This document shows positions 3,001 through 12,000 of a DNA stretch of 28,058 nucleotides, piece after piece. Within the stretch, counting starts at the first letter, position 1, and every line of letters starts with the position of its first letter. Source of the stretch: Elusimicrobiota bacterium (GTDB taxonomy: Bacteria; Elusimicrobiota; Elusimicrobia; Elusimicrobiales; UBA9959); NCBI GenBank assembly GCA_037137395.1, contig JBAXKK010000027.1, forward strand, positions 1 to 28,058, written 5' to 3'. The position numbers are program-made.

Positions 3001-6000
3001 CCCTGGGCTTTAAGTTCGTTGGCCAAGCCGAGAATGGAAAGATCATCCTTTTTCCATTTCGCGTAGTCCTCCCAAAGCGTCAGCGCCTCGTCTGCATCAC
3101 CTTGGCCGCGTAATATCTCCGAAAGGGCGGCGCGGGACGTTTCGTCATACGGGTTATCGGCTAAAACAGTTCGGAACTCCACAACAGCTTCATCCAGCCT
3201 GCCAAGGCTTTTAAGCTCCTGCGCAAAGTCTGACCGATGGCGCACATTTGTTTTGGCCAATTCCCTGAAAACCTTAAGGGAACCTTCAATATCCCCGCAA
3301 GCTTTCAGCGCCTTCGCCAATTTGTACTGCAACTCATAACGTTCCGGCCTGAGTTTTAACGCCTTCCGGCAAAGTTCCAATGCCCGGTCATTCAGTCCCT
3401 GCGCCAGGTGAAGATCTATCAACAGATCAAGTTCCGCCAGCGGGTCCCGGTAGCGCGCGCCCATTTCTTTCGCTAAAGCGACAGCTTTATTGAAATTCCC
3501 TTCCGCCCGGAATATCTCAGCCAGACTGAAATAAGAGTCTCCCCGGTCCCTGTCTGTTTTTATGCGGGTTGCATAGAACTTTTTAAGCTCATCTGTTTTA
3601 TTTTGGGCCTTCAGGGACTCAGTCAATGCAAAAATCCCTATGCCGTTAAGCGCCGGCGCCTTTATTAATACCTCCTCAGCCTCGCGCCACCTCTTTTGAT
3701 CGTAAAAGATATGTCCCAACCCGGAAGCGGCATCCGAGTTTTGCGGATCAAGTCTCAACGCAGCTTGCAGTTCCCGAATTGCTTCCGGGTAGCGAAAATG
3801 TGTCAGCAGTGTCCATCCAAGGCGATTGCGCGCCTTTGCGCTGGTGGGGTTCATCCTTACGGCTTCACTGACTATCATCAACTCCCAACCCCGGGGATCT
3901 CCCGGCAGGCTGCAGAGCGACAACTCATGGTAAGCCTCAACGCATGAATTATCAGCTTTCACCGCTAGGGCAAAATACTTGCGCGCGGCCGCGATAGAAT
4001 GCCTGCGCGCGGCCGGCGTGCCGACCTTACAATGTGATTCTTTGGCCTCTCTGCCAAGCCGCATATATTCCGCGCAAGTCCTGCCACTTTTCTCCGCTTT
4101 TTTCATATAGTTACCGCTGTTATTTTAAATCGATTTTGATATATCAAACAGAGCCATGAATACTCAATGTCCCTCCGGGTTAAGAGCGGTTTTTTTTATT
4201 TGAATACTGATTAATCTAAACTTTTACCTGTACCGCCCCAGCACCTGCCCGGTGGCGTTGGAGCATTCAGGGGTCTGGCGGCCTTCCAGTTCGGCGCTCA
4301 TCTCGCCGGCCACATAGGCGCAAAGTTCGGTGTCGGTAACCGCGCCGTCGTTGTTGCCGTAGGGCGGCTTATCCGCATAGCCTTTGAGTCCGAGCAGCAT
4401 ATAATAAGTAAAGTAACCGTGTTTTGTTTTATCAAAGTCAAAACTGGCCTGGTTCCCTTTAGAGCCCGCGAACACGAAAGCCCTCTGCTGGTCAAACTTC
4501 GCGGCTACTACCAGGCCGCGGTGGGTCGTAGCGTATTGATCCGGAGTCCTGCCCTGCATACCTGAGAAGCAAGAATCCAGCAGCACAAACACATTTTTAG
4601 CCTTAGAGCCTTCCATATCCGAAATCAGGTCTTTAAGGTTTATAAGCGTTCCCTTTCCCAGGGAGGGATCCAAGTCCCCGTCGTAAGGGACTATGAACGG
4701 CGGACCGTCGCGGGGATTATCCGGGTCCGGGATACCGTGCCCGGCGAAGTAAAACACGATGGTGTCAAAATCCTTCTTTATCAGCCAGTTTTTAACGGCC
4801 GCGTCTATTGTGGATTTGCTGGCGTCGTCATCTGTAAAGGTTTTAATATTTTCCGCGGGAATACCCATCACGCCGCTCAGATAACTTTTAACAGCTTTAG
4901 CGTCCAGCGCGGGGTATTGCAGTCCGCTCACCCTTTTATATTTTCCCACACCCACCACAATAGCACCGGCCTTTTTCAGTTGTCCGTAATTGGTAAAGGG
5001 CACCGGCAGGAGCTGTTCCGGTTCTTTTTTCTTCTCGATGTCTTTCGGCTGGAAAACAGCCACAACCTCTTCCACTTTGCGGGCGTTAAAGCCCGATGCT
5101 TCCGTAACTTTTATGCTGAAATGCGGGGCGGCGCTAGGCATTGTTTCCGGGATGATCGCGGTTAATATCCTTGTGATTTCAGCCCCCGGCTGAACATCCC
5201 CCACTACCACTTCACCGAATAGTCCTTGTACGGCCTTGTTACCGGAGACTTCAACCTTTACCCCATTGGCTGTCTGGCCGCCGGTGTTGCGGATCGCTAT
5301 CTTTACCTTTAAAGTTTCCCCCGGCTGATATATGCCGTCACCGTTAATATCTCCGTCCGTAAGTATAGCTTGGTCAAAGTCAAGTGACGGCGGGCTTTTA
5401 GACTCAACAATAAGGCCGCCGGCGCTGGCGGCAGCGGGGATAGGGCCCGGCAAGCCAGGCAAAGCTGAGAGCAGAGAAGCGGTATCAAATTCGGCAAACA
5501 CCGGCTCAATTGCGTTCTGGTAAAAGCCCTTAAAGTCCAGCTTTACCTGTTGCTCGCGCGCGAACCTTGGGCGCGCCTCTTTAAAGCTGAAATATAAAGG
5601 CAGTCGCCCCTCCGTGGAATATCCTTTGTCAATTTTAAAAACAGCCGAAACCTTCCGCGACTCTCCCGGCTTAAGCGTTCCAAAATTGGTCTTGCCGGAA
5701 TTGATCACTGTTATTTTGGGCTCTTTAGACACCAGCGCAAAATCCGCCGCGCGGGCGTCGCTTAGTCCCGCGTTTACAATAAAACCGGTAAGTTCAATAG
5801 TTTCGCCTGCGTCAATAATACCGTTGCTGTTGCCCTCGGAGCGGCCGGTAAAGTTTTCGCTGAAGGTATAACGCGCCATAGCCAGGTAAGGCGGGGACAT
5901 CCCTTTAAGGCGGACACCCACGGCTGCGGCCTCGGGATTGAAGCCTCTGGACTCGATAGCCTCCATTCTGAAGGCTATAGGGCCGGTTTCAGACTCGTCA

Positions 6001-9000: not shown

Positions 9001-12000
9001 TACCCGGAACACGAGATTTGTATTCCTGTCGCCAGACTCCGGGTCGAGACCGTCGGCGGTGTAGTTAGCTTCCCCTGTCCAAGCCAAAGTGGGTGCATGA
9101 TTGGAGACAATAGGCCCGGAAACCGGAGTCAAAGGCGTCCCAGTGGCGTCGGCATTATAAGCATCCTGCGCTTCAAAATAATAGGTGTAATCAGAACCGG
9201 TATAAGTCAGCGATTTTGTATAGGTATAGGTAGCGCCACTGCCATTACTCCCGGAAACGAAATTCATTGTAAACGGACTGTCGCCAATTTCTACCCCGCC
9301 CTTTTTTATATGCAGTTTGGGATAGCCGGAATATGGCGCATCACTATCCGTGTCCGAATATTTCACCCGGAAAACAAAACTTGTTGTCAGATCACCCGTG
9401 TTTGGACTAATTCCGTCCGAGCTGTAGCTGGTCTCTCCGGTCCAAGCTAAAGTAGGAGCCGCGTTCGTTACGCTCGGCCCAGACATTATTATGACTGATG
9501 TACCGGTAGAGACAGCATTATAAACATCCTGCGCCTCGAAATAATAAGTGTAGTCCGTCCCAGTAGAAGTCAGAATTTTGGAATAAGTATAAGTAGAGCC
9601 AGCAGCCGGCGTACCGGAAACAAAGTTCATAGCAAACGGGCTCCCGGACAGTTCCGCAGAATTTTTAAGCACATGCACTAAAGGATAATCCATTGCGGGG
9701 GCATCGCCATCTAAATCCTTATATTTAACACGGAAAATAAAAGTTGATCCGGCATGAGCGCCACTTGGGGCCAGACCAGTGGCTGTATAATTAACTTCAC
9801 CCGTCCAAGCCAGAGTCGGCGTGCTGTTCGTCACGCTCGGCCCGTTCATTATTACAACGGGCGTGCCAGTAGAAACAGCGTTATAGGCGTCCTGTGCCTC
9901 GAAATAATACGTGTAATCCGTCCCGGTAGAAGTCAGGACTTCGGAATAAGCATAAATAGAGCCAGCTACCGGCGTACCGGAAACAAAACTCATAGCAAAC
10001 GGACTACCGGAGATTTCAGCCTCGCCCTTTTTCACATGAAGTTTGGGATAACCTGATGCCGGAGCATCATTATCTGCATCGGAATATTTAACGCGGAAAA
10101 TAACAGTTGAATTGATATGGGCAGTGCCAGGCTCCACGCCATCCGCCGTGTAGTTTACCTCACTGGTCCAAGTTAAAACCGGCGCCACATTAGTCACACT
10201 GGGACCAGACATTATTACTACCGGTGTGCCGGTAGAAACGCCATTATAATCGTCTTGGGCCTCAAAATAATACGTGTAATCCGTTCCGGTAGAAGTCAGA
10301 ACTTTGGAATAAGCATAAATAGCGCCGTTTACTGGTTCTCCCGAAAAAAGAATCATGGCGAATGGACTACTGGCCAGTTCTATGGAATTTTTGAGCACAT
10401 GAACTAACGGATACCCTGAGGCGGGGGCATCACCATCTGAATCTTTATATTTAACGCGGAAAATAAAAGTTGCTCCGGCATGGGCAGTATTAGGCCCCAA
10501 ACCATCGGTCGTATAATTAATTTCCCCGGTCCAAATCAATACTGGTGAATAATTTAAAAGTTTTGCGTATCGCAAGTCTGCGCTTTCGTAGTTGCCATAA
10601 ACAATATGAGGATTATTGCCGGAATCAAGAGCCATGCAAGCAATACTTCCAGAATTAAGCCCATTCGACTCAACTATATGGGTCGACCAGGAAGACCCAT
10701 TCCAGTTCGCATAGTTTATGCTATTAGAGTGGTAATAAGAAATATGCGGGTTATTACTGACATCAAGCGCAAGTGAGATAGCTGCATATCCACCCGACGC
10801 ATAATCAATCGACTGGATTGACCAGACAGAACCGGTCCATTTTGCGTATTTTAGATTGTTACCCCTATAAGCAATATGTGGATTATTGCCGGAATCAAGA
10901 GCGATTGAAGTGTATCCTCCCACATCTCCTAATGAATCAACCGTCTGTGTTGACCAAGAAGTTCCGGTCCACTTTGCGTATTTCAAATCACCATTTGTTG
11001 CATCATAATAAGAAATGTTGGGGTTATTGCTGGGATCAAGCGCTATTGAAGTGTATTGCCCTACATTACCTATTGAATCGACTGTCTGTGTTGACCAAGA
11101 AGTTCCGGTCCACTTCGCGTATTTCAAATCACCATTTGCAACATCGTAATAAGAAATATGCGGGTTATTGCCGGAATCAAGAGCGATTGAGGTGTAAGTA
11201 CCCACATCCCCCACTGAATCAATCGTCTGTATTGACCAGGCAGAACCGGTCCATTTTGCGTATTTTAGATCACCATTTGTGACATCGTAATAAGAAATAT
11301 GCGGGTTATTGCCAGAATCAAGAGCGATTGAGGTGTAATAGCCTGCCCACCCCACTGAATCGACCGTCTGAACTGACCAGGCAGAACCGGTCCATTTTGC
11401 GTATTTTAGATCACCATTTGCACTGTGATACCCATCGTAATATGAGATATGCGGGTTATTACTGGAATCAAGAGCTATAGACAGGTATTCTCCCTCTCCC
11501 GTTGAATCAACCGTCTGGATTGACCAACCGGCAAAAGCCGGGCCAGCAAACAAAAACAATGACAAAATAAATAATTCAATTTTCATATTAAATCCACCCG
11601 CAATTAAGCCATCTATTCACGGAAGGACATACACTAGGCAAACAAACATCCCCGTTAATAAAGGTGTTTAAATTCATTTTTGCTATTTTCACATATTTTG
11701 GATTAATTTTTTTAAAATATCTTTTCCCTACAGATGCGATTATGTAACGGGCATGCAAAAACTCAAGCCGATCATCCCAATGCGTTCCATGGTGAGGCGG
11801 GATTAAAAAAAGGGCGCCCCTTTTCCTTTTATGCAATAAGATGCCAACGACTTGCTTTATCTCATCCCCTTCCAAATCCCCCATAAAAAGAAAACCTCTA
11901 TCACTGTATAAAGCTAAACTGAAGTGATTTGCTGCTTTTCTCAATGCCTTATTAGCTTTTTTTAGAAGGCTTATTCGCAGATTGTTTTCCTCTTCACTCT

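Follow-up and report, generated by a model that had tools for sequence, protein, structure and literature searches.

Organization of the Locus

The analyzed window is a 28,058-nucleotide stretch of DNA from an Elusimicrobiota bacterium (GenBank assembly GCA_037137395.1, contig JBAXKK010000027.1). It contains a row of genes located on the reverse strand and bordered by a divergent regulator gene (Table 1). The best reading of this row is an accessory four-gene envelope cassette, which comprises the genes of a DUF4384 lipoprotein, an LPP20-like lipoprotein, a cargo protein with a C-terminal sorting domain (CTD) and a barrel–protease fusion protein, with the fusion gene as its centre. The two lipoprotein genes (13235–14981) are located upstream of the cargo gene and lie beyond the region described in the genome-wide survey's note.

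Table 1. Genes and protein domains of the locus; positions are those of the window
Feature	Position	Strand	Description and basis
Barrel–protease fusion gene	4224–7295	(-)	1023 aa, signal peptide; PorV-type barrel, helical pair, three Ig domains, C14 protease
C14 orthocaspase domain (776–1021)	4233–4970	(-)	H853, C909; Asp798 and Asp907 in the pocket; residue 926 basic
Three Ig-like domains (351–745), CARDB-like	5061–6245	(-)	TIGR03900 match and AF2 model
TPR-like short helical segment (305–345), predicted to be periplasmic	6261–6383	(-)	Helices in AF2 model
PorV/FadL-type barrel, 14 strands, N-terminal plug (residues about 20–300)	6396–7238	(-)	NF033709, AF2 model, PorV structural match, loop lengths
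ORF6N gene between cargo and barrel	7298–7828	(-)	PF10543, 118 bits; PADLOC PDC-S05, 183 bits
Cognate cargo, 1170 aa	8074–11586	(-)	Signal peptide, head (7-repeat propeller), stalk (6 repeats), CTD
Type-A-like CTD of cargo	8083–8310	(-)	TIGR04183 over cut-off; subtype seen beside this barrel clade
Variable low-GC slot (GC 0.40)	11588–13088	(-)	MBL-fold ORF (372 aa) and 94-aa ORF; different genes here at other loci
LPP20-like lipoprotein, 206 aa	13235–13855	(-)	Atlas 0.96 to LPP20-named clusters; conserved lipobox Cys; no Pfam match
DUF4384 lipoprotein	13944–14981	(-)	PF14326, 58.8 bits; probable start 14945, 333 aa; invariant Cys17
Divergent XRE-type HTH regulator	15141–15488	(+)	PF01381; same position in several loci

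The ORF6N gene was also found at two other fusion loci (G310 and G298) and is absent from the remaining ones; it is probably a passenger. No conserved operator was seen in the alignment of the intergenic region between the XRE and DUF4384 genes, and a promoter and terminator scan gave results at chance level. A gene for an inner-membrane output protein was not found within the cassette.

Architecture of the Fusion Protein

The fusion protein was matched by the PorV/PorQ family model NF033709 (residues 23–300, model positions 2–326; 96.2 bits, cut-off 90) and by PF00656 (residues 778–1013; E 1e-13, 51.9 bits, cut-off 21.4), and it did not reach the cut-offs of the equivalog models for PorV (NF033710; 36.5 bits, cut-off 250) and PorQ (74 bits, cut-off 220). 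Modeling using AF2 (pLDDT 71 overall, below 50 in the plug region, residues 1–47) led to 14 barrel strands (66–300), helices (305–345), three beta-sandwiches (351–745) and a caspase fold (776–1021). The survey had described a PorV-type barrel, a helical part, Ig domains and a C14 domain in one ORF, and the ORF, both profiles and the model all agree with it; of the "three to four" Ig domains that it counted, the model shows three and no fourth. These domains resemble those found at the C-terminus in the MXAN_5808 family of periplasmic peptidases (TIGR03900, E 9.5e-20). A TPR match was not found by Pfam on the helical stretch. The architecture is real, and complete copies of it occur in several Elusimicrobiota genomes. 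No PorV–caspase fusion came up in literature searches that covered freely accessible papers, mostly as listings.

The structure search showed that the barrel (residues 23–320) is closest to PorV (8gl6_F; Z 28.9, rmsd 5.0, 279 aligned) and the protease to metacaspase 6w8s (Z 22.2). FadL channels ranked just after PorV (Z 25) and BAM-associated barrels were found at Z 21–23; therefore, the barrel fold alone is no proof of cargo carrying. In a Foldseek search with the full-length fusion, integrins ranked first at a TM of about 0.1; this was rejected as an effect of the Ig array.

The genome contains 18 PorV-like genes according to a local HMM, the number given previously, and 17 such loci according to NF033709. 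Fourteen of the 18 lie downstream of a CTD gene at a distance of no more than 800 bp, and 12 of these 14 carrier–cargo pairs do without a protease, including those with cargos of more than 3,000 aa. At all complete fusion loci (10/10, not independent of one another) the CTD cargo adjoins the fusion gene or lies one gene off, and this holds for other families as well (G135, G107). The cargo CTD is 61–96% identical to the CTDs at seven other loci of the clade, versus 19–28% to 15 other CTDs of the same genome. The heads of the cargos differ between loci (two propeller types, RCC1 and a small beta head), while the stalk and CTD are constant. The barrel is thus probably a carrier dedicated to the cargo encoded next to it, with binding predicted from gene pairing, and in this respect the survey's placing of a PorV-type carrier beside its own CTD cargo was upheld. 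One carrier per cargo is also the arrangement of PorQ–PorZ and of PorP/SprF-type carriers, the latter being described for linked type B pairs (PMC12618676).

Predicted Topology of the Barrel and Its Tail

In the modeled barrel, the three long connections (20, 14 and 10 residues) all follow odd strands, whereas the six connections after even strands contain 2–6 residues. The long loop after strand 3 is conserved and faces outward in the model. The plug aligns with the PorV and FadL plugs from residue 22–26 onward, and the last barrel strand coincides in the alignment with the C-terminus of PorV. Since the tail exits after strand 14, an even strand, the protease is predicted to be periplasmic. 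Based on the AF2 model and barrel convention, we infer with good confidence that the barrel is located in the outer membrane and its tail in the periplasm. In other paralogs of the PorV-like group, a TPR tail takes this position after the barrel. The FadL/PorV-like outer membrane proteins of Treponema pallidum likewise combine a plugged barrel of 14 strands with helices that extend it at the C-terminus, and these TPR bundles were placed in the periplasm by modeling; they differ in that PMC8407342 describes no Ig or protease domains and proposes a role as small-molecule importers. With the topology given by the model, PorV-type barrels are able to carry periplasmic enzyme arms.

In intimin and invasin, Ig repeats and an effector at the end come after an N-terminal barrel. 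The fusion protein resembles them in this succession of parts, and its Ig–C14 arm might be threaded through its own barrel to give a surface protease that is not a sortase. Such an inverse autotransporter is highly improbable given the 14-strand barrel with its PorV/FadL-type plug, the lipoprotein partners and the TPR tails of the other paralogs.

Type IX Components and the Sortase Question

The SprA-like gene scored 112 bits against TIGR04189 (E 1.4e-32; cut-off 200 not reached). Its profile matched 6h3i (E 2.8e-17), and the top four Foldseek matches were SprA (E 1e-32 to 6e-40). In the structure comparison, Z scores did not discriminate between FhuA (Z 17.6) and SprA (Z 17.0), though the alignment spanned about 1,000 residues for SprA and 417 for FhuA. 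A phmmer search of the PDB with the single protein gave no matches. The profile and the fold support homology, in line with the SprA/Sov-like translocon proposed earlier. Peptidase C25 (PF01364) was not detected in any of the 80 family genomes (positive control 5/5), and the PorU model NF033707 matched the genome only through its CTD part (best 29 bits). GldM (TIGR03517) was not found in four Elusimicrobiota genomes, with the positive control found, although a very divergent form could escape this model. The lack of both components had been noted in the survey as well. The PorV of Flavobacterium johnsoniae (PDB 6H3I/8GL6 chain F) thus resembles the present protein in its fold, in the location of its gene beside that of a CTD protein and in the SprA relative of its genome, and differs from it in that the latter belongs to Elusimicrobiota, carries a 720-residue tail with a protease and comes from a genome where C25 and GldM were not found.

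The survey had read the C14 domain as a PorU-like sortase, fused to PorV, that would cut the CTD at the surface and anchor the cargo. The clan CD His–Cys dyad beside a CTD cargo, shared with PorU, and the missing C25 protease speak for this reading, yet we consider it very unlikely. The fusion protein belongs to C14, has no CTD and no C25 or NF033707 match, and its protease is by prediction on the periplasmic side of the membrane; as PorU acts outside, the sortase reading is unsupported. According to PMC10202324, PorU cleaves after translocation at T/E/D/N|G/A/S, so the Arg/Lys-type pocket predicted for the C14 domain also argues against it, and an alignment of the linker before the cargo CTD revealed no conserved Arg or Lys. 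The distribution is too patchy as well: fusions are present in 7 of 80 family genomes and members of the barrel clade in 8 of 401 genomes of the phylum, compared with 214 of 251 for the SprA-like gene; 12 of the 14 carrier–cargo pairs of the genome lack the protease, and one other genome (G065) has the same barrel clade with cargo and without the protease. Moreover, genomes with barrel-less relatives of the protease already hold C25 proteases (5/5). The earlier proposal therefore stands as regards the PorV-type carrier with its CTD cargo and the SprA relative, and not as regards the sortase. For T9SS-like export in Elusimicrobiota, with an SprA relative, many carriers, no C25 sortase found and a C14 protease that does not fill this gap, uncut cargo on private carriers is the likelier mode of anchoring.

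Protease Residues and Specificity

The survey had called His853 and Cys909 invariant. Cys909 is indeed kept in 30/30 fusion proteins; His853 is invariant in a 21-row alignment and present in 28/30 fusion proteins, with one Asn and one Lys. Together with a frameshift within the protease domain at the G298 locus, the protease is inactive or broken in three relatives, while the aligned dyads of three other proteins (L127, L128 and L136) are intact. In the alignment of fusion proteins, Asp798 was found in 30/30, Asp907 in 29/30 and Arg or Lys at position 926 in 29/30. The two aspartates correspond to the acidic pocket described in PMC6426788, and at the sequence level an acidic S1 pocket of the Arg/Lys type is predicted, provided that these residues are equivalent to those of metacaspases. 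It is reasonably likely that the C14 domain cuts after Arg or Lys, works with both lipoproteins and is itself processed, probably at residue 926.

Distribution and Relatives of the Fusion

Intact fusion copies were found at 10 loci of nine Elusimicrobiota genomes. PorV-like barrels occur in 80/80 family genomes and the SprA-like pore in 78/80, and no barrel was present at the other nine C14 loci of the family that were examined. The second copy in the genome studied, on contig C112, was previously given as 979 aa; a start at 1480 yields 1018 aa with a signal peptide. Its NF033709 score of 88.5 bits is slightly below the cut-off of 90. Identity between the two paralogs reaches 85% for the barrel and 81% for the cargo CTD, but is 48% across the Ig domains and 53% across C14.

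Among the best 150 relatives of the Ig–C14 tail, 129 have no barrel. A DUF4384-like gene was located within 3 kb at 40 of 73 barrel-less C14 loci (many of the other 33 are short), and a PorV-like gene at none of the 73; Pfam confirmed 36 of 41 tested DUF4384 candidates (E<0.01). At 7 of the 10 fusion loci, DUF4384 shares the contig and lies no more than 7 kb away. Judging by these sequences, the Ig–C14 tail is a widespread exported module that is accompanied by a DUF4384 protein, its usual partner, and by an LPP20-like lipoprotein. With the exported Ig–C14 orthocaspases (PF00656) accompanied by DUF4384 it shares the fold (metacaspase and MALT1, Z 21–22), the dyad, the acidic pocket and the signal peptide, and it differs by the N-terminal PorV-type barrel and by the propeller being placed on a separate CTD protein. 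The relatives have lipid, TPR or small-barrel anchors, and propeller–Ig–caspase proteins are common among them.

These data bear on the possibility that the barrel is a passive tether, which carries cargo and anchors a periplasmic protease with no signal passing between them. The N-terminal parts are freely swapped in the C14 class (WD40, TPR, PQQ propeller and others), and two genomes (G174 and G220) have the cassette of DUF4384, lipoprotein and Ig–C14 without barrel or cargo. In addition, barrel-fused proteases sit at three places in the C14 tree, where well-supported branches require at least three changes (a quick tree with no clade test), which suggests tail exchange; the barrel tree showed no sign of independent fusions and is compatible with a single gain and a single loss. 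However, a mere anchor would need no cargo, and every complete fusion locus keeps one, so we regard the passive tether as rather unlikely.

Putative Function of the Cassette

The explanation that we favour, albeit tentatively and at slightly less than an even chance, is a four-gene cassette in which a carrier barrel with a periplasmic protease is coupled to its cargo. The cargo probably exits via the SprA-like pore and remains attached by a CTD that is not cut, in the manner of PorZ on PorQ. Binding or clustering of the variable outer head would gather the barrels and switch on the periplasmic protease, which would cut after Arg or Lys and work with the DUF4384 and LPP20-like lipoproteins, as barrel-less relatives appear to do. 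The fusion would then be a receptor-protease that spans the outer membrane and corresponds to the propeller–Ig–caspase proteins in split form. That the fusion couples the two sides is a faint suggestion, and the specific role of a surface head activating a caspase that cuts these lipoproteins or other envelope targets in stress or defence is conceivable, if on the unlikely side.

Alternatively, the protease could serve periplasmic processing or quality control: with the CTD bound in the SprA pore, the cargo body would trail on the periplasmic side, where the tethered protease would mature it or clear stalled cargo. The CTD docks on loops of PorV within the SprA pore before it is extracted (PMC10994853). 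Stalling is plausible because no GldM motor was found, and the Ig domains are similar to those of a periplasmic Prc-like family. Nevertheless, the carrier–cargo pairs that manage without a protease and the unexplained DUF4384 and LPP20 partners make this improbable.

To our knowledge, neither a trigger nor a substrate is known for most of the caspases that bacteria export. The cassette places a candidate trigger (the surface cargo), a protease and two candidate partners in four genes, and, if the favoured explanation is true, a variable surface head would switch on a caspase carried on the same polypeptide as its carrier barrel. As for the substrate, a preprint (10.1101/2022.08.17.504292) assigns one group of Csx30 C-terminal domains to DUF4384, a family often fused to proteases; by analogy with Csx30, the DUF4384 lipoprotein may be a substrate of the protease, which we offer as a lead.

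Architecture of the fusion protein

The barrel of the 1023-aa protein was attributed to the PorV/PorQ family (NF033709, 96 bits; cut-off 90). The AlphaFold model, built on a 21-row alignment (pLDDT 71), showed a barrel of 14 strands, then a helical segment, three beta-sandwich domains and finally a caspase fold. PorV was its top structural match (Z 28.9, rmsd 5.0, 279 aligned), and further matches were FadL (Z 25) and metacaspase/MALT1 (Z 21–22). The same fusion was seen again in independent assemblies and is therefore not an artefact; all six best fusion loci were labelled Elusimicrobia, and a 96% identical copy of the window locus is present in a same-genus genome. 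Thus, the barrel–C14 fusion described in the genome-wide survey's note was confirmed by domain matches, model and recurrence, while the paralog on contig C112 proved to be 1018 aa long, not 979 aa. The two paralogs share 85% identity in the barrel and only about 50% in the tail. Contamination of the source genome (G000) is 7.7%, at a completeness of 98.9%, and C112, a small contig, may therefore be foreign. The barrel–Ig–C14 combination was not found in the literature searched, and we regard the fusion as a real, undescribed architecture built of parts from known families. P0124, P0126 and locus L136 show a second type of fusion, in which an IPT/TIG domain separates the barrel from the Ig domains; the L136 cluster also contains a second Ig–C14 gene, which lacks a barrel.

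Catalytic Cys909 was found in 30/30 fusion proteins and His853 in 28/30; of the two residues noted earlier as invariant, only the cysteine is so. Orthocaspases self-process, and residue 926, basic in 29 of the 30 proteins, is a candidate self-cleavage site. Asp798 and Asp907 correspond to the acidic pocket for basic residues described in PMC6426788.

Coordinates of the features discussed (window positions unless a contig or locus is named)
Feature	Position	Strand	Remarks
Fusion, 1023 aa	4224–7295	−	signal peptide, NF033709 barrel, C14 at 778–1013
TPR-rich gene, 466 aa	2706–4106		downstream of fusion
ORF6N	7298–7828		PADLOC PDC-S05, 183 bits
Low-GC slot	11588–13088		MBL-fold ORF (weak LmuA match, E 1.9e-5), 94-aa ORF
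Two lipoprotein genes (DUF4384, LPP20-like)	13235–14981
AAA_14/DUF4143 ATPase	15524–16702		PADLOC PDC-S01, 356 bits
SprA relative, 1776 aa	G000 C6:30473–35803 = L093:8474–13804		single copy
Contig end	G000 C103:4619–6607		DUF4384 gene, start of propeller cargo
Contig start	G000 C112:1–1445		end of a cargo
One cargo between two PorV-like genes	G000 C85:2199–7002		upstream one very divergent, missed by NF033709
PorV–TPR paralog	G000 C40:5607–7220		follows cargo of 4,825+ aa
PorV–TPR paralog	G000 C55:12006–13616		follows cargo of 3,100 aa
Second fusion architecture	L136:1660–4599		IPT/TIG domain

Cassette and genomic surroundings

A CTD cargo lies beside the fusion in all ten complete loci (G000 twice, G310, G280, G180, G270, G298, G372, G135 and G107). 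Seven of them have DUF4384 on their own contig, no more than 7 kb away, and at least six have an LPP20-like gene. Each of the three loci that lack DUF4384 stops near the edge of its contig; in two of the genomes concerned, the gene sits close to where another contig ends. In G107, all four cassette genes are directly adjacent. The cargo carries a conserved stalk and CTD under a variable head; CTD identity was 61–96% among clade loci (except G135, 27%) versus 19–28% against 15 further CTDs from G000.

The surroundings look island-like because of the low-GC variable slot, the PDC-S01 and PDC-S05 matches, and recombinase and primase-polymerase genes, which adjoin a second DUF4384 gene. AAA_14/DUF4143 and ORF6N are island-type genes that either flank the cassette or interrupt it. 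The slot is filled by unrelated unknown genes in other loci. Among the loci read, the TPR-rich gene was present downstream of the fusion in G000 and G310 only. Contigs C103 and C112 are probably one locus split in assembly; the upstream part of C103 contains recombinase, resolvase and primase-polymerase genes.

Secretion context and distribution

A profile of 35 rows, built for the 1776-aa gene, matched SprA in four colinear pieces (E 2.8e-17), and the model of residues 580–1776 (pLDDT 86) matched four SprA entries (E 1e-32 to 6e-40), the next match being at 6e-6; the proposed SprA-like translocon is thus upheld. Two permease genes stand back-to-back with it, which we take to be LptF/LptG-like from the look of their sequences. 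GldM was not found in the four genomes tested, and hits of the PorU model in G000 were confined to CTDs, as noted earlier. The type-9-like secretion context of the fusion holds; a 2023 review places T9SS strictly within Bacteroidota (PMC10202324).

All 80 family genomes contained PorV-like barrels (4–26 matches each), and 78 contained an SprA-like gene (52/52 good genomes), which was present in 214 of 251 phylum genomes. C25 protease was found in none of the 80 (positive control 5/5). Any C14 occurred in 22 and DUF4384 in 16; reading of the C14 loci gave the fusion in seven, namely G000, G310, G280, G180, G270, G298 (frameshifted) and G128 (in pieces), with truncated G281 left out. The close barrel clade (≥60% identity) was found in 8/401 phylum genomes. 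In G000, 14 of the 18 PorV-like genes lie no more than 800 bp downstream of a CTD gene, and 12 of these 14 lack the protease; G065 has a same-clade barrel and cargo with only a short tail. The rarity of the fusion, the protease-free paired barrels and G065 indicate that the protease is accessory. Judged by motif, the genes after both PorV–TPR paralogs look like histidine kinases; this may be a further layout for trans-envelope signalling.

Membrane side and function of the protease

In the fusion barrel, the three long connections (20, 14 and 10 residues) each come after an odd strand, and connections after even strands measure 2–6 residues; the final strand aligns with the PorV end. In outer-membrane barrels generally, what follows strand 14 lies in the periplasm, and this predicts the same side for the modelled C14 tail; a protease threaded to the surface is very improbable. 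C-terminal TPR bundles of Treponema FadL-like barrels were modelled in the same way, as periplasmic (PMC8407342).

The fusion had been proposed to be a merged PorV and PorU, a surface sortase cleaving the cargo CTD. The CTD is bound by extracellular loops of PorV (PMC10994853), and PorU acts after translocation, cutting at T/E/D/N|G/A/S (PMC10202324), whereas the fusion's C14 is predicted to be periplasmic with a pocket for basic residues. CTD removal there would ruin the export signal before use, and no conserved Arg/Lys was found in the cargo linker. Topology, the 7/80 distribution, the 12/14 pairs without protease and the Arg/Lys mismatch make a sortase most unlikely. Processing of the cargo within the periplasm also appears improbable.

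We tentatively favor a reading in which the barrel would carry and hold its own cargo, the periplasmic protease would act together with the DUF4384 and LPP20-like lipoproteins, and the cargo would control the protease. Topology and linkage suggest the first two steps, and the split sensor–protease design suggests the third. A passive tether is a rather unlikely alternative. All readings with a periplasmic, non-sortase protease, taken together, are quite probable.

Origin of the Ig–C14 tail

Residues 346–1023, used as a query against 1.84 billion representatives, gave 398 matches at E 1e-30 or better. Among the best 150, Ig and C14 occurred without barrel in 129 (some fragments), and the rest were 10 barrel–Ig–C14, one barrel–Ig, eight C14 only and two Ig only. 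N-terminal parts among 30 relatives scanned with Pfam included WD40, TPR and PQQ propellers. In a rough test, a hydrophobic N-terminal stretch was present in 102/126 Met-starting barrel-less relatives versus 349/909 background ORFs. Of 73 barrel-less C14 loci, drawn from many phyla, 40 had a DUF4384-like gene within 3 kb (Pfam matched 36 of 41 candidates submitted) and none had a PorV-like gene within this distance. G174 and G220 contain DUF4384, lipoprotein and Ig–C14 without barrel or cargo. In a 46-row C14 tree, barrel-fused proteases fell in three places. Exported C14 genes with differing N-terminal parts stand three to five in a row in L007 (WOR-3), L025 and L044, and the genome behind L007 gave 22 C25 matches.
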